DNA from: Zootoca vivipara
Lineage: Eukaryota
DNA: 64,000 bases
Assembly (NCBI RefSeq): GCF_963506605.1
Contig: NC_083276.1
Coordinates: forward strand, 82,522,001-82,586,000
Direction of reading: 5' to 3'
Below are positions 8,688-59,743 of the stretch, one piece after another. How positions within the stretch are numbered: position 1 is the stretch's first letter; every line of letters starts with the position of its first letter. The notes beneath the pieces were generated by a model. The model saw nothing but the letters and a program-made list of their open reading frames with translations, did no database searches and was not told the origin of the DNA. The translations under genes were made by a program, and so were the position numbers.

Positions 8688-8850
8688 AAGGTAAAGGGAC
8701 CCCTGACCATTAGGTCCAGTCATGACCGACTCTGGGGTTGTGGCACTCATCTCGCGCTATTGGCCGAGGGAGCCGGCGTACAGCTTCCAGGTCATGTGGC
8801 TAGCATGACTAAGCCGCTTCTGGCGAACCAGAGCAGCACACGGAAACGCG
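8688..8850 (-). mobile_element. Sauria SINE, 5'-truncated
   Basis: (ACCTTT)n tail on -; 13-bp TSD AAATAAGCTAGTA (8675-8687, 8851-8863). Confidence 0.9.
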
Positions 8851-12445: not shown

Positions 12446-13171
12446 GGAATCTAAAGTGTACAGGTGTTCTACTTAGAGTGGCTGCTCATTTTAACATTCA
12501 TTCGTTCAGAGTTAGCAGGCTCAGTGAATCCCCAAAGTTTTGTGGCCTGACCACAAAACTGGGAAGACCAGTTAAGGAGGAATCTAATGTTCTTTCTCTT
12601 AAACAGCACTCACTCCATGACGTTTGGAAATACAGGAGATGATTGTGGCTTTTATTAGGGTTGTGCATCTGCTCAGAGCAAATCCTTGATCCCAAACTCA
12701 TTCCGGCTGAGTGAGTCAAGGAAGCTCATGATTCTCTTAGGTCAGTCCCACCTGGAGCAATCAAAATGGAGAGGCAGTCAGGTGGTGAGGTGAGTGGGAA
12801 GGAGATGATGGAGTCAAACAATCCCACCTGCATTGTCTCCCTCTTCCCCCACTATTTATTGCCAACCATGTGTTTCATTAGGGCTTAATACCATGGTTGA
12901 ACCTGGGCTAGGAGGGGGGAAGTGAGACAAGGTCACCAATCACATTGAGTTATATAACCCTGATTACACCTTCCCTGGTGGGGTGGGAAGACACACTGAC
13001 CACATGTTCAATTTGAGCTTAAGCTGTTATGTTTTTAATTACAGCCTTTATAAAACTCCTGATTAAATTTAGGGTCCAGGTTGCCTTGGGTTCAGATCAA
13101 TCTCAGCCAGATTGAAACCTAATCATGATTCTTGATTTTATTTCACAAAATTTATCTAATGTTTCATAGTA

Positions 13172-15956
13172 CCGTGTTTCTCATATTTTAAGGCATCCCC
13201 CCAAAATAAGCCATGACAGGATTTCAAAGGGTTGGTGAAAAATAAGACATACCCCGAAAATAAGCACTATCGCAAAGCCCTGACCGAGCGAGAGGCGAAG
13301 GCGCGGGACCCAGCAGGAGCTCCCTGCCTGCTTCCCCGAGCCGTAGCGCATCGGGGGACAGAGCCGAAGATCGGCGGGCGCTCCTTGCTGGGCTTGACAA
13401 GCCCGGCAAACAGCGCCCGCCGATTTTGGACCTGTGCTGTGTGACGGGCGGGGGTGGGTGGGGAAGCGGAGATCGTTCTCCGCTCTCCCCCCACCCCCGC
13501 CTGTCACCGAAGATCGGCGGGCGCTGTTTGCTGGGCTTGACAAGCCCGGCAAACAGCGCCCGCCGATCTTCGGACCTGTGCTGTGTGACAGGCGGGGGTG
13601 GGGGGGAAGCGGAGATCGTTCTCCGCTCTCCCCCCACCCCCGCCTGTCACCGAAGATCGGCGGGCGCTCCTTGCTGGGCTTGACAAGCCCGGCAAACAGC
13701 GCCCTCCGATCTTCGGACCTGTGCTGTGTGACAGGCGGGGGTGGGGGTGGGGAAGCGGAGATCGTTCTCCGCTCTCCCCCCACCCCCGCCTGTCACCAAA
13801 GATCGGCGGGCGCTGTTTGCTGGGCTTGACAAGCCCGGCAAACAGCGCCCGCCGATCTTCGGCCCTGTGCTGTGTGACGGGCGGGGTGGGGGGAAAAGCG
13901 GAGATCGTTCTCCGCTCTCCCCCCACCCCCGCCTGTCACCGAAGATCGGCGGGCGCTGTTTGCTGGGCTTGACAAGCCCGGCAAACAGCGCCCGCCGATC
14001 TTCGGCCCTGTGCTGTGTGACAGGTGGGGGTGGGGGAGAAGCGGAAATCGTTCTCCGCTCTCCCCCCACCCCCGCCTGTCACCGAAGATCGGCGGGCGCT
14101 GTTTGCTGGGCTTGACAAGCCCGGCAAACAGCGCCCGCCGATCTTCGGCCCTGTGCTGTGTGACAGGCGGGGGTGGGGGGGAAGCGGAGATCGTTCTCTG
14201 CTCTCCCCCCACCCCCGCCTGTCACCGAAGATCGGCGGGCGCTCCTTGCTGGGCTTGACAAGCCCGGCAAACAGCGCCCGCCGATCTTCGGACCTGTGCT
14301 GTGTGACAGGCGGGGGTGGGGGGGAAGCGGAGATCGTTCTCCGCTCTCCCCCCACCCCCGCCTGTCACCGAAGATCGGCGGGCGCTGTTTGCTGGGCTTG
14401 ACAAGCCCGGCAAACAGCGCCCGCCGATCTTCGGCCCTGTGCTGTGTGACGGGCGGGGGTGGGGGGGAAGCGGAGATCGTGCTCCGCTCTCCCCCCACCC
14501 CCGCCTGTCACCGAAGATCGGCGGGCGCTGTTTGCTGGGCTTGACAAGCCCGGCAAACAGCGCCCTCCGATCTTCGGACCTGTGCTGTGTGACAGGCGGG
14601 GGTGGGGGTGGGGAAGCGGAGATCGTTCTCCGCTCTCCCCCCACCCCCGCCTGTCACCAAAGATCGGCGGGCGCTGTTTGCTGGGCTTGACAAGCCCGGC
14701 AAACAGCGCCCGCCGATCTTCGGCCCTGTGCTGTGTGACGGGCGGGGTGGGGGGAAAAGCGGAGATCGTTCTCCGCTCTCCCCCCACCCCCGCCTGTCAC
14801 CGAAGATCGGCGGGCGCTGTTTGCTGGGCTTGACAAGCCCGGCAAACAGCGCCCGCCGATCTTCGGCCCTGTGCTGTGTGACAGGTGGGGGTGGGGGAGA
14901 AGCGGAGATCGTTCTCCGCTCTCCCCCCACCCCCGCCTGTCACCGAAGATCGGCGGGCGCTGTTTGCTGGGCTTGACAAGCCCGGCAAACAGCGCCCGCC
15001 GATCTTCGGCCCTGTGCTGTGTGACAGGCGGGGGTGGGGGGGAAGCGGAGATCGTTCTCTGCTCTCCCCCCACCCCCGCCTGTCACCGAAGATCGGCGGG
15101 CGCTCCTTGCTGGGCTTGACAAGCCCGGCAAACAGCGCCCGCCGATCTTCGGACCTGTGCTGTGTGACAGGCGGGGGTGGGGGGGAAGCGGAGATCGTTC
15201 TCCGCTCTCCCCCCACCCCCGCCTGTCACCGAAGATCGGCGGGCGCTGTTTGCTGGGCTTGACAAGCCCGGCAAACAGCGCCCGCCGATCTTCGGCCCTG
15301 TGCTGTGTGACGGGCGGGGGTGGGGGGGAAGCGGAGATCGTGCTCCGCTCTCCCCCCACCCCCGCCTGTCACCGAAGATCGGCGGGCGCTGTTTGCCGGG
15401 CTTGACAAGCCCGGCAAACAGCGCCCGCCGATCTTCGGCCCTGTGCTGTGTGACGGGCGGGGTGGGGGGAAAAGCGGAGATTGTTCTCCACTCTCCCCCC
15501 ACCCCCGCCTGTCACCGAAGATCGGCGGGCGCTGTTTGCTGGGCTTGACAAGCCCGGCAAACAGCGCCCGCCGATCTTCGGCCCTGTGCTGTGTGACAGG
15601 CGGGGGTGGGGGGAAGCGGAGATCTCCGCTCTCCCCCCACCCCCGCCTGTCACCGAAGATCGGCGGGCGCTGTTTGCTGGGCTTGACAAGCCCGGCAAAC
15701 AGCGCCCTCCGATCTTCGGACCTGTGCTGTGTGACAGGCGGGGGTGGGGGGGAAGCGGAGATTGTTCTCCGCTCTCCGCCCACCCCCGCCTGTCACCGAA
15801 GATCGGCGGGCGCTGTTTGCTGGGCTTGACAAGCCCGGCAAATAGCGCCCGCGTGCACTTTATTAAAAAATAAGACATCCCTTGAAAATAAGCCATGTCG
15901 TGTTTTTTTGAGGAAAAAATTAATATAAGACATGTCTTATAATATGAGAAACACGG
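13172..15956. mobile_element. Tc1/mariner (Tc2-like) non-autonomous transposon with internal satellite
   Basis: TIRs CCGTGTTTCTCATATT / AATATGAGAAACACGG, TA duplication, repeated subterminal AAAATAAG(A/C)CA motifs at both ends. Confidence 0.9.
13364..15852. repeat. 143-bp GC/CpG-rich double-palindrome tandem repeat, 17 units + partial
   Basis: Units start at 13364, 13507, 13650, 13796, 13939, 14082, 14225, 14368, 14511, 14657, 14800, 14943, 15086, 15229, 15372, 15515, 15653 and 15796. Confidence 0.97.
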
Positions 15957-17295
15957 TAAAAAACCAAAAACAACCGTCAAAGCAGTTTCTAAAAACAATG
16001 GTTTAAAAAATCAGGATTGCCAAATTGGGTCTGGACCAAATTATGAGTACTTTGCACAACCCTAGATTTTAACCCCATGGGCAATTGAAAAGAAAGGCAG
16101 TTTATCTGTCTACAACGTAGGTGAGAAAGCAAAAATTATCACTGTTTAGGATCTATAAAAAAAAACACCATTTTAGGCTAAATAACATGACACACTATAT
16201 TTTTCTTTTTAAAATGTCACAAACGTTTATGGAATAAACATAATTTTAAATAAGAAATAAATTCAAGCAATTTATATCAATACTCGGCTTTACTGACCAA
16301 ATCCTCCACCTTTACCATCTAACACCAGAGAATAATTATTCTATCTAAGTTTTGAATACTCTGTATTATCCAGGGAATGTGTTCCCAAGTGGCAAACCAG
16401 TGCTTGTATTAATAGCATAGTAGCAAAGTGGGGTCTCCCACAACTGCAGAGCTGCATTATTCTAGCTGGAGGTAAGATACTAGGAGATGGTAGCACCCAT
16501 CTTTTCATGCATTCAAGCTAGTCTCCATTTGTTTCAGTCCTCATTTTAAAAATGCAATTGACAAATGGGAAAGGAGTTACTCTTAAAGTTTGAGAGAGAA
16601 AGAGGAGCTGCATGAGGAACGAATCAGAAAATTGGCTTGTATTCAGCTTGGAGGGTTTCTTCAGTCCTTTACCATCCATTAGGATTAGATGAAACATCTT
16701 TTTTTACCTGTGTTATGTAACAAAGCCTAAGAAGACAGAGTTCATTTCTTTTCAAAGTGCCACTCTGCCTCAGAATAGGTAGCAGGGGGTGGTTCACTGC
16801 ACAAGACAAGGGAGAAATTTGGTCCTCTTCCCACTTGAATGCAAAACTACGTAGATTGCTATTGTTAAAGCAATGCACAGGCCAAAACACACCTGTCCTT
16901 CAAAATTTCCACTTCTTTGAACTTTCCCATGGTAAATCTGCATATAGAGGGAAGGTGTTCATAAATAGCCATATATGCATGAAATACAACTTATATAGAT
17001 TAATTATATTAAGCAACGTTGCTTACAGATTTGTGCATATTACGAAAAAATGAATACTGAACGGCTTATAAATTTACAAAATGACATTGGGGGAAGAAAA
17101 CACTTGCTCGGTGAAGATTTAAAAAATGAGAAATTGAAATAGATAGATTTGTCCAGCCATACATTTGCAGCAATTCCAATGTATTTCAAAACCTAGAGGC
17201 AGGGTTAATGCCAAGGGTTAGATCAGAAAGATTTTTTAAAACTAATAAGACTTCACTTCCTTTTCCCTTTCAGGTCAGATAACATTATTGGTAAC

Positions 17296-18249
17296 ATGAA
17301 TAAGGGAAATGACAGCTTAGTGACTGAATTTCTCTTGCTGGGGCTTTCTGTCTTTGGAAAGAAACCAACTCTACTTTTCCTAGGTTTCTCTCTTATCTAT
17401 GGTACTATCCTGGTCTTCAACATCACCATCATGACTGTCATCCTGTTCGACCGGACTTTACACAGCCCCATGTACTATCTACTCTTTGCATTCTCCGCAT
17501 CAGAAACCTGCAGCACATTTGCCACCATCCCCAAGCTGCTGGTGACTCTGGTAACAGGCAGTCAATCCATTTCCTTTGTTGAGTGTGCCATGCAGCAATT
17601 TTGTTTCTTTGGCTTCTCTGGAAGCAACTGTTTCCTGCTTGTTTCTATGGCTTACGACCGGTATGTAGCAATATGCTCCCCACTTCAGTACCATATACTG
17701 ATGAACAAAAGGGTTTGTACCCAAATGGTAGCGGCTTCGTGTGTAACTGGATGTATCATATCACTGAGTATTAATACCCTTATTTTCAGGTTGCCCTTCT
17801 GTGGGCCAAATGGAATCAGGCATTTCTTTTGTGATTTCCTACCTGTGCTAAGGCTGGCTTGCATTGATGAATCGGTCTTGCACCTGACTAACATTGCAAT
17901 CATTATTTTGTGTGCCATTGTTTTGCTGGGCACAGTCATAGTGATGTTTGTCTCATACCTTTACATCATTTCTGCCATCCTAAGGATCCCCTCCAGCTTA
18001 GGAAGGCAGAAAGCCTTCTCCACATGTGTTTCCCACCTCACAGTGGTGATAACACACTTTGGGTGTGCATCCTTTGTGTATTTGAGACCCAAGTCTTCTT
18101 CATCGCTAGATCAGGACACCTTGATCTCAGTGACTTATGTCTTTCTAACCCCTCTACTGAACCCTGTGATTTATACCTTAAGAAACAGGGAGGTTAGAAT
18201 AGCCATAAAGAAATTACTTGTGCACTCATTCCATTCTCAGAAACTGTGA
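17296..18249 (+). CDS. Olfactory receptor, OR10-like, intact (317 aa), paralog of 10496
   Basis: Same motif set; acceptor ttttccctttcAG at 17273. Confidence 0.96.
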   Translation: MNKGNDSLVTEFLLLGLSVFGKKPTLLFLGFSLIYGTILVFNITIMTVILFDRTLHSPMYYLLFAFSASETCSTFATIPKLLVTLVTGSQSISFVECAMQQFCFFGFSGSNCFLLVSMAYDRYVAICSPLQYHILMNKRVCTQMVAASCVTGCIISLSINTLIFRLPFCGPNGIRHFFCDFLPVLRLACIDESVLHLTNIAIIILCAIVLLGTVIVMFVSYLYIISAILRIPSSLGRQKAFSTCVSHLTVVITHFGCASFVYLRPKSSSSLDQDTLISVTYVFLTPLLNPVIYTLRNREVRIAIKKLLVHSFHSQKL

Positions 18250-18554
18250 ACAGAAGGCATTTTGACATTTTGTTAATGGACGTCCAAGCCCTGATGAAGG
18301 ATGCAGTTGATTCAGCAGGGCCTGCTACTTAACATGAGTGGGTAGCTTGAGAGCATTTTACTGTCGGAAGAAAAGCTAAATCGCCTCTCCCACATTATCT
18401 GTTTCCAGTCCTGGTCACATCCACCAAATACATTCCAAAATACATGGAATGCCAATCCACACATTAAATGTTACAGGTAGCTTGGCCCTGAATAGCACAA
18501 TATAGTTCTATAGTACAGCTTGCCCATCCAGTTCATCAGTATTTGTCCTTGAGC

Positions 18555-24498: not shown

Positions 24499-24857
24499 AG
24501 GGATGCGGGTGGCGCTGTGGGTTAAACCACTGAGCCTAGGGCTTGCCGATCAGAAGGTCGGCAGTTTGAATCCACGCAATGGGGTGAGCTCCTGTTGCTT
24601 GGTCCCAGCTCCTGCCAACCTACCGGTAGCAGTTCAAAAGCATGTCAAAGTGCAAGTAGATAAATAGGTACCACTACAGCGGGAAGGTAAACGGTGTTTC
24701 CGTATGCTGCTCTGGTTTGCCAGAAATGGCTTTGTCATGCTGGCCACATGACCTGGAAGCTGTACGCCGGCTCCCTCGGCCAATAACGCGAGATGAGCGC
24801 CGCAACCCCAGAGTCAGTCACGACTGGACCTAATGGTCAGGGGTCCCTTTACCTTTT
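24499..24857 (+). mobile_element. Sauria SINE, full length
   Basis: Head gggatgcgggtggcgctgtgggttaaacc; tail ggggtccctttacctttt. Confidence 0.9.
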
Positions 24858-32114: not shown

Positions 32115-33050
32115 TCACGGAAATCTTTTCAAGCCAAGGGCTTTGACCAGAGCCCTTTTAACTTGCTTATTCCTCAGACTGTAGATCAAAGGGTTTAGCA
32201 GGGGAGTAACAACCACATACAACATAGAAACAATTCTGTCCTGTTTGGGGGAATAGCTGGAGGTGGGGCGTACATAGGTGCCCATGGTCGCCCCATAGAA
32301 CAGGAAAACTACAGTCAAGTGGGAACCACAGGTAGAAAAGGCTTTGCTCCTTCCCTCGGCAGACTGCATGCGCAATATAGCAGAAATGATATAGGCATAA
32401 GAGATCAGAGTGACCAAGAAAGCACCAGCTCCTAAAATACCAGGCACAACAAGAAGAACCAGTTCAAAGATGTAGGTAGAGGAGCAAGAAATCGCAACCA
32501 GTGGAGGGATATCACAGTAATACTGGTTAACTTTGCTGGGCACACAGAAAGTTAATGTAAAGGTCAGCGAGGTAAGAACCAAGGCATGGATAAAGCTAGC
32601 TAGCCAGGTCCCAGCAGCCAGCTGCATACACAGCCGTGTGCTCATTATGTTTGTGTAGTGCAAGGGACTGCAGATAGCCACGTAGCGGTCATACGCCATC
32701 ACTGAGAGCAAGAAAACTTCAGTGCCCACAAAACCAATCAGAAGGAAGAGTTGTAATACACAGCCAGAAAATGATATTGTCTTGTCCTCTGACATGAAGA
32801 CCTGGAGCATCTTTGGCACAGTGACGGTTGGGGAAAGAATATCCAGGAAAGATAAATTGCTGAGGAAGAAGTACATAGGGGTCTGGAGCTGAACTTCCGT
32901 TGCTATTGCCAGGATAATTGCCCCATTCCCTGCCAGAGTGATCAAGTAGATCAGAAGAAACACCAGAAAGAGGGAAATCCGCACTTCTGGAACATCAGAA
33001 AGCTCAATCAGGTAAAATTCTTTTGTTTCTGTGATGTTGTCTTTCTCCAT
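32115..33050 (-). CDS. Olfactory receptor, class II, intact (311 aa); older relative of the tandem-array genes
   Basis: Start MEKDNIT; [39 protein letters not shown]; acceptor at 33084. Confidence 0.96.
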   Translation of the reverse strand: MEKDNITETKEFYLIELSDVPEVRISLFLVFLLIYLITLAGNGAIILAIATEVQLQTPMYFFLSNLSFLDILSPTVTVPKMLQVFMSEDKTISFSGCVLQLFLLIGFVGTEVFLLSVMAYDRYVAICSPLHYTNIMSTRLCMQLAAGTWLASFIHALVLTSLTFTLTFCVPSKVNQYYCDIPPLVAISCSSTYIFELVLLVVPGILGAGAFLVTLISYAYIISAILRMQSAEGRSKAFSTCGSHLTVVFLFYGATMGTYVRPTSSYSPKQDRIVSMLYVVVTPLLNPLIYSLRNKQVKRALVKALGLKRFP

Positions 33051-33673: not shown

Positions 33674-34028
33674 TAAAAGGTAAAGGTAAAGGGACCCCTG
33701 ACCATTAGGTCCAGTCGTGACCGACTCTGGGGTTGCGCGCTCATCCCGCATTATTGGCCGAGGGAGCCGGCGTATAGCTTCCAGGTCATGTGGCCAGCAT
33801 GACAAAGCCGCTTCTGGCAAACCAGAGCAGCACATGGAAACGCTGTTTACCTTCCCGCTGTAGCTGTTCCTATTTATCTACTTGCATTTTGACGTGCTTT
33901 CGAACTGCTAGGTTGGCAGGAGCTGGGACCAAGCAATGGGAGCTCACCCCGTCACAGGGATTCGAACTGCCGACCTTCTGATCAGCAAGCCCTAGGCTCA
34001 GTGGTTTAACCACAGCGCCACCTGGGTC
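33674..34028 (-). mobile_element. Sauria SINE
   Basis: TSD AATGGAGAGGGG (33662-33673, 34029-34040). Confidence 0.9.
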
Positions 34029-39830: not shown

Positions 39831-40299
39831 TACAGTACTTATAAAAGTATAGGATACACGACACTTTTCAGAGAAACATGAGCAAGAGAGTTGCTGAGTC
39901 AAGGAGCATACAATCTAGATACAGATGGGTTACAGCATAGGGGCTACAGTAGCAGGGGGGATTACATACAGTGAGAGTAAAAGATAAACAAAGGAAGAAT
40001 TGGAGCAAATATCTTTTTTAAAATTTTTACACTCAGAAGTAATTCCCACTGCATTCAGGTGGACTTACTCTCAGGTACCACGTGAAGACAAGTTGAAGTT
40101 CCTGATTCCAGAATTCCTTGATGCAAGGAGTTTGAACCATTGGTACTCACAAATAGTGAGGCCTGTTGTTGCTGCTGTTGCCAGGTGTAAGACTATGAAC
40201 TAGTGTGAACCCACAAATGTACAACTAACCCCATGGAATCTTCAATGAAAACTAATTTGAACACCCAAAACAGCCATGGCTTTAGACTTATATTCTTTA

Positions 40300-41166
40300 C
40301 TAGTGTCATTCAGCCCGTTCAGTAAACGGCCGCTAGAACATGTGAGGAGTGGCGGGGCCGCGGCCTTCCCTCCCTCTCTGTGCTCGGATGCTGTGCCTGG
40401 GAGGAGAAGGGGAGGTAGCCTTCTGAAGCCCGCTTCCTCCCAAGTAGACCTGCCCGTCGGGGTGCAGCGAGGAGCAGGGCAGGCTACCAGCCACGACTGA
40501 GCGAGGGGAACGACTCCGGCACCCAACCTCTGGGACTGAGGTGCAGGTNNNNNNNNNNNNNNNNNNNNNNNNNNNNNNNNNNNNNNNNNNNNNNNNNNNN
40601 NNNNNNNNNNNNNNNNNNNNNNNNNNNNNNNNNNNNNNNNNNNNNNNNNNNNNNNNNNNNNNNNNNNNNNNNNNNNNNNNNNNNNNNNNNNNNNNNNNNN
40701 ACCCTCTCCTCCTCCTCCTCCACCGTGCGGAGCCCTCTTTCCTTGTTTGCGTTTTTTCTTCCCGCCTTTCCCCTCTGAGGCAAAGGCTCCCCTCACGTGA
40801 GGCGGGGGCCCTGCCTGGCAGTGCCGGAGCTCCCTGCGGCCGCAATGGCAGCGCCAGCGCTTGAGGGAGCCGGCCGAGAAAAGAGAGGCGGAGGTGTGGG
40901 GGAAAGAGCTGCAAACTCTTCCCGCCGCAGCGGCTGCTAACGCAGGTGGGTGGGGAAGGAGGGCGGCGGCGGCAGGCATGTGAGGCTCAACACGGTGGGA
41001 CCCGGCCGGGGTGCCTCGGCGAGAGCCAGTTACCATGAGAGTGTCCTGGGCGTGCGAGCAAGTGTCTCTGCGTCCAATCCCTGTGTCCGTGGGGCACATG
41101 CGTAGTAGCGCAGACACAGGGACACAGGGAGTGGACGCAGAGACACTTGCATATTATTATATAGGA
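40300..41166 (-). mobile_element. Non-autonomous Helitron
   Basis: 5' TCCTATATAATAA, 3' CTAG, subterminal hairpin GCCCGTT-cagta-AACGGCC (40313-40331); inserted at A|T with no TSD; empty site at 47965/47966. Confidence 0.9.
40549..40700. other. Assembly gap (152 N)
   Basis: Run of n. Confidence 1.
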
Positions 41167-41353: not shown

Positions 41354-42289
41354 TCATGAAAATATTTTAAGGTTGGGGGCTTTGACCAAGGCCCTCATAA
41401 CATCCTTATTCCTCAGGCTGTAGATCATAGGGTTTAGCATAGGAGTAACAATCCCATACAACATGGAAACAATTCTGTCCCGTTTGGGCGAATAGCTGGA
41501 GGTGGGGCGAATATAGGTGGCAATGGTGGTCCCATAAAACAGGAAAACAACAGTCAAGTGGGAACCACAGGTGGAAAAGGCTTTATGTCTTCCCTCAGCA
41601 GACTGCATGCGCAGGATAGTAGAGATGATATAGACGTATGAGATCAGAGTGACCAGGAAAGCACCACCTCCTAAAGTACCACCCACAAGGAGAGCAGCCT
41701 GTTCTGGGAGGTAGGTAGAGGAGCAAGAGGCAGCCACTAATGGTGGGATATCACAGTAATATTGGTTAATTTTATTGGGCCCACAGAAGGATAATGAAGA
41801 GGTCAATGAAGTATGAATCATGGAACTGATGAAGCCGGTTAGCCAGGTCCCAGCAGCCAGCTGAACACACCGTCGTTTCGTCATGATGTTTGTGTAGTGC
41901 AAGGGACTGCAGATAGCCACGTAGCGGTCATACGCCATCACTGAGAGCAATAAAACTTCAGTGCCCACAGCATCAATCAGAAAGAAGAGTTGTAATACAC
42001 AACCAACAAAGGATATTGACTTGTCCTCTGACAAGAAGACCTGGAGCATCTTGGGCACAGTGATAGTTGGGCAAAGGACATCCAGGAAAGACAGGTTGCT
42101 GATGAAGAAGTACATGGGAGTCTGGAGGTGAACATCTGTTGCTATTGCTGTGAGAATTGCCCCATTCCCTGCCAGAGTGATCAAGTAAATCAGCAGAATT
42201 GCTACAAAGAGGAAGATTCGCACTTCTGGGAGATCAGACAGCTCAGTGAAGTAAAAATCTCTTGTTTTTGTGATATTCGCTTTCTCCAT
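41354..42289 (-). CDS. Olfactory receptor, tandem array copy 1, intact (311 aa)
   Basis: Start MEKANIT after acceptor at 42309; full OR motif set. Confidence 0.96.
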   Translation of the reverse strand: MEKANITKTRDFYFTELSDLPEVRIFLFVAILLIYLITLAGNGAILTAIATDVHLQTPMYFFISNLSFLDVLCPTITVPKMLQVFLSEDKSISFVGCVLQLFFLIDAVGTEVLLLSVMAYDRYVAICSPLHYTNIMTKRRCVQLAAGTWLTGFISSMIHTSLTSSLSFCGPNKINQYYCDIPPLVAASCSSTYLPEQAALLVGGTLGGGAFLVTLISYVYIISTILRMQSAEGRHKAFSTCGSHLTVVFLFYGTTIATYIRPTSSYSPKRDRIVSMLYGIVTPMLNPMIYSLRNKDVMRALVKAPNLKIFS

Positions 42290-48201: not shown

Positions 48202-49137
48202 TCATGAAAATATTTTAAGGCTGAGGGCTTTGACCAAGGCCCTCTTAACATCTTTGTTCCTCAGGCTGTAGATCATAGGGTTTAGCATAGGAGTAAAAAT
48301 CCCATACAACATGGAAACAATTCTGTCCCATTTGGGTGAATAGCTGGAGGTGGGGCGAACATAGGTGGCAATGGTGGTCCCATAAAACAGGAAAACAACA
48401 GTCAGGTGGGAACCACAGGTGGAAAAGGCTTTGTGTCTTCCCTCAGCAGACTGCATGCGCAGGACAGTAGAGATTATATAGACGTATGAGATCAGAGTGA
48501 CCAGGAAAGCACCACCTCCTAAAATGCCACCCACAAGGAGAGCAGCCAGTTCCGGGAGGTAGGTAGAGGAGCAAGAGGCAGCCATTAGTGGTGGGATATC
48601 ACAGTAATATTGGTTAATTTTATAGGGCTCACAGAAGGATAATGAAGAGGTCAATGAAGTATGAATCATGGAACTGATGAAGCCGGTTAGCCAGGTCCCA
48701 GCAGCCAGCTGAACACACCGCCGTTTCGTCATGATGTTTGTGTAGTGCAAGGGACTGCAGATAGCCACGTAGCGGTCATACGCCATCACTGAGAGCAATA
48801 AAATTTCAGTGCCCACAGCATCAATCAGAAAGAAGAGCTGTAATACACAACCAACAAATGATATTGACTTGTCCTCTGACAAGAAGACCTGGAGCATCTT
48901 GGGCACAGTGATAGTTGGGCAAAGGACATCCAGGAAAGACAGGTTGCTGATGAAGAAGTACATGGGAGTCTGGAGGTGAACATCTGTTGCTATTGCTGTG
49001 AGAATTGCCCCATTCCCTGCCAGAGTGATCAAGTAAATCAGCAGAATTGCTACAAAGAGGAAGATTCGCACTTCTGGGAGATCAGACAGCTCAGTGAAGT
49101 AAAAATCTCTTGTTTTTGTGATATTGGCTTTCTCCAT
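48202..49137 (-). CDS. Olfactory receptor, tandem array copy 2, intact (311 aa)
   Basis: Full motif set; ATG at 49137 (the ORF-track start is a GTG). Confidence 0.96.
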   Translation of the reverse strand: MEKANITKTRDFYFTELSDLPEVRIFLFVAILLIYLITLAGNGAILTAIATDVHLQTPMYFFISNLSFLDVLCPTITVPKMLQVFLSEDKSISFVGCVLQLFFLIDAVGTEILLLSVMAYDRYVAICSPLHYTNIMTKRRCVQLAAGTWLTGFISSMIHTSLTSSLSFCEPYKINQYYCDIPPLMAASCSSTYLPELAALLVGGILGGGAFLVTLISYVYIISTVLRMQSAEGRHKAFSTCGSHLTVVFLFYGTTIATYVRPTSSYSPKWDRIVSMLYGIFTPMLNPMIYSLRNKDVKRALVKALSLKIFS

Positions 49138-51205: not shown

Positions 51206-51548
51206 AAGGTAAAGGGACCCCTGACCATTAGGTCCAGTCATGACCGACTCTGGGGTTGCGGCGCTCATCTCGCATTATTCGCCAAGGGAGCCGGCATACA
51301 GCTTCCAGGTCATGTGGCCAGCATGACTAAGCCGCGTCTGGCGAACCAGAGCAGCTCACAGAAACGCCGTTTACCTTCCCGCTTGGAGCGGTACCTATTT
51401 ATCTACTTGCACTTTGAGGTGCTTTCGAACTGCTAGGTTGGCAGGAGCAGGGACCAAGCAACAGGAGCTCACCCCGTCATAGGGATTCGAACTGCTGATT
51501 GGCAAGCCCTAGGCTCTGTGGTTTAACCCAAAGCGCCACCCACATCCC
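51206..51548 (-). mobile_element. Sauria SINE, specific to unit 2
   Basis: TSD GCTTAACTA (51197-51205, 51549-51557); absent at 44643 and 56571. Confidence 0.9.
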
Positions 51549-53348: not shown

Positions 53349-54284
53349 TCATGAAAATATTTTCAAGCAAAATGCTTTGACCAAGGCCCTCTTAACATCC
53401 TTATTCCTCAGACTATAGATCATAGGGTTTAGCATAGGAGTAACAATCCCATACAACATGGAAACAATTCTGTCCTGTTTGGGTGAATAGCTGGAGGTGG
53501 GACGAACATAGGTGGCAATAGTGGTCCCATAAAACAAGAAAACTACAGTCAGGTGGGAACCACAGGTAGAAAAGGCTTTCCGCCTTCCCTCAGCAGAGCG
53601 CATGCGTAGGATAGCAGAGATGATATAGACGTAAGAGATCAGAGTGACCAGGAAAGCACCACCTCCTAAAATGCCAGCCACAAGCAGGAGAACCAGTTCT
53701 GGGAGATAAGTAGAGGAGCAAGAGGCAGCCATTAGTGGTGGGAGATCACAGTAATACTGGTGAATTTTATTTGGCCCACAGAAGGATAATGAAGAGGTCA
53801 ATGAAGTATGAATCATGGAACTGATGAAGCCGGTTAGCCAGGTCCCAGCAGCCAGCTGAACACACCGCCGTTTCGTCATGATGTTTGTGTAGTGCAAGGG
53901 ACTGCAGATAGCCACGTAGCGGTCATACGCCATCACTGAGAGCAATAAAATTTCAGTGCCCACAGCATCAATCAGAAAGAAGAGTTGTAATACACAACCA
54001 ACAAAGGATATTGACTTGTCCTCTGACAAGAAGACCTGGAGCATCTTGGGCACAGTGGTAGTTGGGCAAAGGACATCCAGGAAAGACAGGTTGCTGATGA
54101 AGAAGTACATGGGGGTCTGGAGGTGAACATCTGTTGCTATTGCTGTGAGAATTGCCCCATTCCCTGCCAGAGTGATCAAGTAAATCAGCAGAATTGCTAC
54201 AAAGAGGAAGATTCGCACTTCTGGGAGATCAGACAGCTCAGTGAAGTAAAAATCTCTTGTTTTTGTGATATTGGCTTTCTCCAT
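53349..54284 (-). CDS. Olfactory receptor, tandem array copy 3, intact (311 aa)
   Basis: Full motif set. Confidence 0.96.
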   Translation of the reverse strand: MEKANITKTRDFYFTELSDLPEVRIFLFVAILLIYLITLAGNGAILTAIATDVHLQTPMYFFISNLSFLDVLCPTTTVPKMLQVFLSEDKSISFVGCVLQLFFLIDAVGTEILLLSVMAYDRYVAICSPLHYTNIMTKRRCVQLAAGTWLTGFISSMIHTSLTSSLSFCGPNKIHQYYCDLPPLMAASCSSTYLPELVLLLVAGILGGGAFLVTLISYVYIISAILRMRSAEGRRKAFSTCGSHLTVVFLFYGTTIATYVRPTSSYSPKQDRIVSMLYGIVTPMLNPMIYSLRNKDVKRALVKAFCLKIFS

Positions 54285-58816: not shown

Positions 58817-59743
58817 TCATTTCAAGCCAAATGCTTTGACCAAGGCCCTCTTAACATCCTTATTCCTCAGGCTGTAGATCATAGGGTTTAGCATAGGAGT
58901 AACAATCCCATACAGCATGGAAACAATTCTGTCCTGTTTGGGCGAATAGCTGGAAGTGGGGCGAACATAGGTGGCAATGGTGGTCCCATAAAACAGGAAA
59001 ACTACAGTCAGGTGGGAACCACAGGTAGAAAAAGCTTTGCGCCTTCCCTCAGCAGAGCGCATGCGCAGGATAGCAGAGATGATATAGATGTAAGAGATCA
59101 GAGTGACCAGGAAAGCACCACCTCCTAAAATGCCAGCCACAAGGAGAGCAACCAGTTCAGGGAGGTAGGTAGAGGAGCAAGAGGCAGCCATTAGTGGTGG
59201 GATATCGCAGTAATATTGGTTAATTTTATAGGGCTCACAGAAGGATAATGTAAAGGTCAATGAGGTATGAATCATGGAATTGATGAAGCCGGTTAGCCAG
59301 GTCCCAGCAGCCAGCTGAGCACACCGCCTTTTCGTCATGATGTTTGTGTAGTGCAGGGGACTGCAGATTGCCACGTAGCGGTCATACGCCATCACTGAGA
59401 GCAAGAAGATTTCGGTGCCCACAGCATCAATCAGAAAGAAGAGCTGTAATACACAACCAACAAATGATATTGTCTTGTCCTCCGACATAAAGATCTGGAG
59501 CATCTTTGGCACTGTAACTGTGGGGCAAAGGACATCCAGGAAAGATAGGCTGCTGATGAAGAAGTACATGGGAGTCTGGAGGTGAACATCTGTCGCTATT
59601 GCCATGAGGATTGATCCATTCCCTACCAGAGTGATCAAGTAAATCAGCAGAATTGCTACAAAGAGGAATATTCGCACTTCTGGGAGATCAGACAGCTCTA
59701 TGAAATAAAAATCTCTTGTTTTTGTGATATTGGTTTTCTCCAT
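58817..59743 (-). CDS. Olfactory receptor, tandem array copy 4, intact (308 aa)
   Basis: MEKTNIT...; full motif set; stop 3 codons earlier than the paralogs. Confidence 0.95.
   Translation of the reverse strand: MEKTNITKTRDFYFIELSDLPEVRIFLFVAILLIYLITLVGNGSILMAIATDVHLQTPMYFFISSLSFLDVLCPTVTVPKMLQIFMSEDKTISFVGCVLQLFFLIDAVGTEIFLLSVMAYDRYVAICSPLHYTNIMTKRRCAQLAAGTWLTGFINSMIHTSLTFTLSFCEPYKINQYYCDIPPLMAASCSSTYLPELVALLVAGILGGGAFLVTLISYIYIISAILRMRSAEGRRKAFSTCGSHLTVVFLFYGTTIATYVRPTSSYSPKQDRIVSMLYGIVTPMLNPMIYSLRNKDVKRALVKAFGLK

Follow-up and report, generated by a model that had tools for sequence, protein, structure and literature searches.

A double-hairpin satellite array as probable cargo of a non-autonomous DNA transposon in a lizard genome

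The satellite array at positions 13364–15852 of the window, by which we mean the whole 64,000-nucleotide stretch of DNA analysed, is probably the cargo of a non-autonomous cut-and-paste transposon of which the genome has at least 232 copies. The enzyme that moves it is likely a Passer-type transposase (pogo superfamily, DD35D) that is encoded elsewhere in the genome. The array is likely selfish and methylated, with no special role for the neighbouring receptor gene. We assign this reading, which draws on sequence comparison, a probability of about 80%. The original prediction described a satellite unit built of two long hairpins inside a DNA transposon, and TRF, unit splitting and folding agree on this architecture. 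The non-autonomous element spans 2,785 bp (13172–15956) and carries, as predicted, intact terminal inverted repeats (TIRs; 13172–13196 and 15932–15956, 25 bp) and a TA duplication on each side. No ATG-initiated ORF longer than 200 aa lies within it. The predicted olfactory-receptor cluster around it is present as eight receptor ORFs in the window. The element is composed of the following parts.

13170..13171, no strand: left TA target-site duplication; TA flanks also found in 62 of 62 family copies
13172..13196, plus strand: left TIR, 25 bp, 23 of 25 positions matching the right TIR; autonomous element L148 has the same first 28 bases
13172..13320, plus strand: Passer-type left arm, 149 bp, with repeated subterminal AAAATAAG motifs; common to the parent MITEs L112 and L192–L194
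13321..13363, plus strand: remnant of Tigger-like cargo left by a 402-bp deletion
13364..15795, plus strand: 17 full 143-bp units (hairpin 1, 11-nt spacer, hairpin 2), from TRF, unit splitting and folding
13650..15371, plus strand: recent six-unit (861 bp) duplication, units 3–8 (13650–14510) to units 9–14 (14511–15371), from the distance matrix
15796..15852, plus strand: partial hairpin 1, ending at the deletion junction where the donor's right end was lost; junction found 232 times in the genome
15853..15956, plus strand: Passer-type right arm, 104 bp, including the right TIR (15932–15956); 96% identical to the last 100 bases of autonomous L148
15957..15958, no strand: right TA target-site duplication, a TA beside the TIR
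17296..18249, plus strand: neighbouring olfactory-receptor ORF, 317 aa, outside the element and given for context

TRF describes the array with a period of 143, 17.4 copies and 95% matches. Splitting resolves it into 17 full units of 138–146 bp and a 57-bp partial hairpin 1, which gives 35 hairpins, the number foreseen for the back-to-back arrangement. Thirteen of the 17 units are distinct. Units 9–14 repeat units 3–8, with four of the six pairs identical and the others two bases and one base apart; three differences in all point to a recent, real duplication. The array has a G+C content of 68.5% compared with 42% in the rest of the window, and the near-undecayed CpGs that had been noted in CpG-poor surroundings are reflected in observed/expected ratios of 0.82 and 0.30, respectively.

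The predicted geometry holds in detail: hairpin 1 has 33-bp arms flanking one A, with a T.G mismatch that is absent in the perfect unit at 15372, and an 11-nt spacer separates it from hairpin 2, whose 31-bp arms contain two mismatches and enclose a 4-nt loop and whose last C also belongs to the following unit. Folded as DNA, one unit forms the two hairpins expected from the prediction with −84.4 kcal/mol, a stability that none of 200 shuffled sequences reached (z = −17). Hairpins take up about 92% of each unit. Cutting a unit at both hairpin centres yields halves of 75 and 63 bases, each the reverse complement of the other at 60 of 63 aligned positions, with one gap of 12 bases. The array therefore reads almost the same on both strands: an axis of symmetry recurs every ~70 bp, and the array owes its direction to the spacer alone; most likely, the near-palindromic unit was made by repeated fold-back copying. 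The arms appear still to be copied from one another, because the reverse complement of a common left-arm two-base variant occurs in 4 of 662 right arms (in four copies), where single changes also number four. The T-to-C change that makes hairpin 1 perfect is found in 13 of 62 elements, a count that shared descent may inflate, and 59 of 61 first units carry one position-linked variant.

The junction between array and right arm has 232 matches in the genome and the exact unit junction 2,899, with none in reversed controls for either, so that at least 232 dispersed copies is a lower bound for family size. A search with the unit returned 464 candidates on many contigs, and the family amounts to ~0.4 Mb in total. 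We fetched 62 complete copies of the at least 232, 49 of them chosen by likeness to the window copy, after dropping L073, which is interrupted and has no right end. The fetched copies hold 1–31 units (median 8), which supplies the count of monomers per copy that the original prediction had proposed as a check, and measure 489 to 4,775 bp. Arms were compared in 58 copies, after dropping four with non-standard arms. They fall into two subfamilies that are 4.7% apart, with pairwise distances of 0.83% and 2.17% within them, and the window copy is a member of the more varied one. Two 19-unit copies of 3,031 bp are identical throughout and sit in different flanks; whole arrays therefore move intact. 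The idea of a young, mobilisable cassette is well supported by the number of copies, the TA on both sides of every fetched copy, the identical copies at different sites and an intact matching transposase. At L035 and L088, two array elements face in opposite directions with 1.1 and 2.3 kb between them, which hints at local hopping.

The left TIR word is more frequent than the array, with 884 matches, because sister families have the same ends. We collected 31 sister elements with other GC-rich interiors, several of which contain repeats of their own of ~41, 50, 88 or 105 bp. Inverted (‘flip-flop’) forms of the array were considered and rejected, as all eight elements with left-type TIR words at both ends belong to sister families that do not contain the unit. 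In the sister non-autonomous elements L080–L087 (for example, L082:1042-1904), the GC-rich interiors resemble captured promoter/first-exon sequence, with CCGGAAGT motifs and a purine-rich stretch from which an acidic peptide might be translated.

A transposase with matching ends is present in the genome. The DDE_1 search gave 96 matches, and 16 loci were fetched around repeated ones, of which five (L145–L148 and L151) have exactly the TIRs of the window element and eight represent a sister autonomous family with related TIRs. The helper-type elements are 3.5–5 kb long. L148 and L151 contain a complete 431-aa ORF, while the ORF of L147 is open, L145 has a frame break and L146 a shortened end. 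The L148 protein scores over the Pfam cut-offs for HTH_Tnp_Tc5 (PF03221) and DDE_1 (PF03184), with BrkDBD not reported, and its DD35D triad consists of D174, D278 and D314 with a spacing of 35. L148:3391-6863 on contig C12 and L151:3407-6879 on contig C3 differ at one of 3,473 bases (99.97% identity), and we consider the two elements a candidate active transposase in a reptile. The true helper of the window element may instead be a relative, since the left arm of the window element is only 84% identical to L148 over its first 93 bases and a closer left end is found on L198, adjoining a DDE match with one stop. Variable internal repeats occur in the helpers (88 and 79 bp) as well as in the sister autonomous family (158 bp); internal arrays are thus a habit of this Passer-type group. 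The second autonomous DD35D family (L149, L150, L152–L157) comprises eight copies of 3.1–3.7 kb with related but distinct TIRs, and its 158-bp repeat is present in 3.4–7.4 copies in three examined elements. A 138-bp short repeat, of which the window holds four copies (8692–8830, 24713–24851, 33687–33824 and 51210–51348; 92–98% identity), is also embedded in autonomous L148.

These data refine the label ‘Tc2-like’ that the TIRs had received: a TIR/TA DNA transposon it is, but the better label is pogo superfamily, Passer-type. Passer elements are marked by DD35D, HTH_Tnp_Tc5 with or without BrkDBD, DDE_1, 400–500 aa, TIRs shorter than 30 bp and TA, according to the parts of PMC7386202 and PMC9976928 consulted. 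The helper shows DD35D, HTH_Tnp_Tc5 and DDE_1 in 431 aa, a short TIR and TA, an assignment by motif criteria that has to be read with the DD35D of Fot/Fot-like elements in mind. The helper may already be listed in the Passer tables in the supplements of both articles.

The hairpin cargo is foreign to its present carrier. Derivation of the unit from the helper's interior was rejected, as BLAST showed the ends alone in common. Reads of longer forms diverge from the window sequence at 13320, and L049 keeps a 594-bp left part with further hairpins, of which 402 bp are gone in the window type; this deletion took three hairpin modules that copies of the L049/L161 type still keep. Searching with the left part of L049 returned five Passer-ended loci, 12 with one kind of CAGTGG end, four with another, six of Helitron type and three others. 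The hairpin modules are found in four kinds of carrier, namely Passer ends, two Tigger-like families and Helitron-type elements. The donor MITE is probably Tigger-like, a class marked by a TA duplication, CAGTGG ends and a Tigger transposase that shares these ends. Most Tigger-A copies have hairpins 1 and 2 once or twice; L164 has three units and is 96% alike to the Passer form over 753 bases. TA and inverted ends are present in L164 and L169. In a tree of the shared cassette (28 rows), the four Passer rows are nested in the Tigger-A rows beside L164 (90/84, below the starred level), and the node uniting Tigger-A and Passer has values of 95/88. Helitrons are marked by a 5′ TC, a 3′ hairpin with CTAG and insertion between A and T; the Helitron-type carriers have the TC start and terminal hairpin at all six loci and the CTAG end, the preceding A and the following T at five of six each. 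Helitron-type and Tigger-like elements at L177–L190 are packed with up to 12 different hairpins, one of which has 117-bp arms (L184, L190). A non-autonomous element of Helitron type that is related to L179 has both its ends in the window itself (minus strand, 40298–41166), just downstream of the receptor ORF 41354–42289; its 5′ end is 92% identical to L179 over 106 bases.

The route into the Passer element is suggested by a single copy, L166, which itself contains neither hairpin: it joins a Passer left arm to the interior and right TIR of a Tigger-like element, after which come TA and 61 bases of the parent MITE; in the array-free parent copies L192–L194, these 61 bases directly follow a TA. 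Capture of the cargo together with host flanking DNA was rejected in favour of nested insertion, because the sequence beyond the donor TIR (61 bases) is that of the parent Passer MITE. These junctions are most simply read as a nested insertion with later deletions, although template switching that stopped at this same TA may have produced L166 instead. The history we propose from nested insertion has five steps: (i) hairpin modules already resided in Tigger-like MITEs and Helitrons, where they are found; (ii) a module-bearing Tigger-like MITE would have inserted at a TA within a Passer MITE of ~850 bp, as indicated by L166, because it keeps the donor's right TIR at that TA; (iii) deletions, whose junctions are observed and whose order we infer, stripped the donor of both its ends and of another 402 bp; (iv) the unit of hairpins 1 and 2, present three times in a donor-type element, expanded and contracted by duplication and deletion of blocks, visible as 1–31 units and multi-unit repeats, possibly through slippage, unequal exchange or gap repair after excision; and (v) whole arrays are moved intact, as seen in the identical copies.

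A rather unlikely alternative is that the hairpin cargo is favoured at the transposon level, boosting copying or mobilisation or duplicating itself and passing between unrelated families like a transposon parasite. The occurrence of the same modules in four carrier kinds speaks for it, as does the excess of the array family (at least 232 copies) over the 28 matches to the 70-bp stretch that marks the parent lineage. Mean array length is also greater in the younger subfamily (17.9 units, n = 9, versus 8.2, n = 49), but this contrast compares one lineage with another and its p value of 0.0002 is not independent. Against an advantage, the number of units is not correlated with the distance to the nearest neighbour (rho −0.16, p 0.23, n = 58), the group also forms arrays from 41-, 88- and 158-bp repeats that contain no hairpin units, and nesting and capture are common in lizard DNA transposons without such an advantage, as far as the part of PMC3014272 consulted describes them. 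A slightly less doubtful, still tentative, suggestion is that the GC-rich hairpin modules are transposon hitchhikers that, within a single lizard lineage, have travelled in Helitron, Tigger-like and Passer elements, their arms kept matched by copying and the longer arrays mobilised or duplicated more often in the newest carrier. If true, this would be a nascent satellite, and the live transposase would offer a means of testing the idea.

Far less probable is that the array has been co-opted to regulate the receptor gene at 17296, be it as an unmethylated CpG island, an insulator or an enhancer. Its CpG ratio and G+C content and its distance of 1.34 kb before the ATG would suit such a role, which the original prediction had raised as a portable CpG island or insulator. 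The mutation spectrum argues against it. In 615 units, CpG transitions amount to 9.1 element-events per site, or 8.0 if the inherited variant at position 3 is excluded, whereas the remaining C/G sites have a value of 1.44 and A/T sites one of 0.84; the A/T value is provisional, as one set-aside position was numbered 83 instead of 84, which leaves the contrast between CpG and C/G sites unaffected. Units outside 130–150 bp, the G-run and five positions of inherited variants were left out of this count. In the arms of the 58 copies, CpG transitions occur at 0.0057 per site per copy versus 0.0008–0.0009 elsewhere (~6-fold). Across copies, CpG sites thus mutate 6–10 times faster than other sites, an excess from which we take the array copies to be young and probably germ-line methylated rather than protected, where methylation is read from germ-line mutation spectra of copies that are related and not independent. 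The CpGs are intact because the copies are young. High CpG is moreover a family trait, because it is common to the interiors of 30 sister elements (0.53–1.0) and the helper's 5′ region (0.77), and array copies lie on most large contigs and are not confined to receptor clusters. In four other samples labelled as the same organism, one contig each covers the left flank exactly to 13171 and runs on for 198, 192, 504 and 504 letters that do not match the element; the insertion site thus appears empty in four of four other samples, and a filled allele may coexist. Under a second organism label (X12), contigs contain the unit and both arm junctions; a third organism (X14) offers short pieces only.

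The receptor gene had been predicted to have 5′ exons 0.2–0.6 kb downstream of the array, a placement that finds no support in the ATG at 1.34 kb or in the RNA: no read fell on 16006–18300 in two runs, read to ~6% and of unspecified tissue, which are not informative for olfactory tissue. The element is probably incidental for this gene. The original prediction had also suggested that the array may be a source of Dicer/ADAR substrates or a fragile site. RNA reads on the unit are few, at most ~26 in the two runs, and come from other copies, and most RNA reads match the right arm of sister elements. In run X21, 5 of 24 reads have A>G at each of positions 15829 and 15832 in hairpin 1, changes that are found in 1 and 0 of 685 genomic hairpin-1 centres, respectively; as the reads carry 7–8 other differences, we do not claim RNA editing, and a diverged copy may explain them as well. 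Similar receptor ORFs are located at 41354–42289, 48202–49137, 53349–54284, 58817–59743 and, on the minus strand, 32115–33050; three of these five are identical over the first 50 residues, suggesting recent tandem duplication.

Least probable of all is that the array owes its length to misassembly of a hairpin-rich repeat. Although the six-unit block is repeated and array length is known from the assembly alone, the 17 units include 13 different ones, three bases distinguish the two blocks, 61 other copies have their own lengths and variants, and contigs of four independent samples are rich in unit junctions.

Transposons are regarded as seeds of satellite DNA, but the steps rarely all survive. 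Here, one genome seems to keep the parent element, the donor, a nested intermediate, deletion products, arrays of 1–31 units and an apparently live transposase. Because these stages coexist, experiments can ask if transposition is promoted or impeded by hairpin cargo, and if it makes the arrays grow. Hundreds of insertions, probably polymorphic and together comprising ~0.4 Mb of near-palindromic DNA, also serve as a natural experiment on the instability of hairpins in a vertebrate.

With TIRs, TA, no transposase of its own, dispersed copies and a helper with the same ends, the window element is a non-autonomous member of the pogo/Tc1-mariner type. At 489 to 4,775 bp, only its one- and two-unit copies are MITE-sized, a strict MITE being small, uniform and about 400 bp in the sections of PMC9659126 seen. 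It is not a free satellite either: the longest fetched array has 31 units, and 2,899 junctions in 232 elements correspond to ~12.5 each, with no sign of a large free array in the assembly. A known microRNA or structured RNA family was rejected as well, since an Rfam scan (E up to 1) gave merely generic hairpin matches, all below the gathering score among the 150 listed of 491 (best 44.3 bits versus 87). We found no description of this element family in the literature covered, which leaves out subscription journals, Dfam and Repbase.

The closest known systems, compared here through parts of the respective sources, share single aspects with it. In miDNA4, a Tc1/mariner MITE of Xenopus tropicalis, the internal unit likewise occurs once or as an array of variable length and was proposed to be captured (PMC12628747, PMC9659126); in the lizard family, by contrast, the donor is identifiable as a nested transposon, the unit consists almost wholly of two hairpins and an intact matching transposase is present. 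DTC84 of the clam Donax trunculus similarly has a variable internal array with position-linked variants, and its palindromes were proposed as hotspots of length change (PMC3879986). It differs in that its arrays reach five repeats at most, its palindrome is short and located near the junction, and its target duplication is AA, whereas the window family has up to 31 units, ~92% of the unit in hairpins and a TA duplication. Composite elements of Anolis carolinensis show the same nesting in non-autonomous families, partial deletion and exchange between superfamilies but, unlike the window family, are mainly hAT (hobo) (PMC3014272); in the text of that article seen by us, ‘palindrom’ and ‘minisatellite’ do not occur and ‘tandem’ occurs once, in an unrelated context. 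The Passer family, reported in reptiles, agrees with the helper in DD35D, HTH_Tnp_Tc5, DDE_1, TIRs below 30 bp and TA, but its accounts (PMC7386202, PMC9976928) concern, in the portions consulted, autonomous elements, whereas the array here is non-autonomous; ‘MITE’, ‘lizard’ and ‘reptil’ have no occurrences in the portion of PMC9976928 seen. Xstir/Xmix of Xenopus and Tetris of Drosophila virilis are also tandem arrays on inverted-repeat transposons, with stem-loop models of array growth, and, as far as the accounts seen go, their units come from the element's own TIR or interior, in contrast to the foreign cargo described here. By analogy, the window element would work like miDNA4 or DTC84. 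MITE-borne arrays are thus already known from miDNA4, DTC84, Xstir and Tetris, as are nested composite transposons from Anolis; what is new here is the nearly self-complementary unit together with its traceable hand-over between transposon families.
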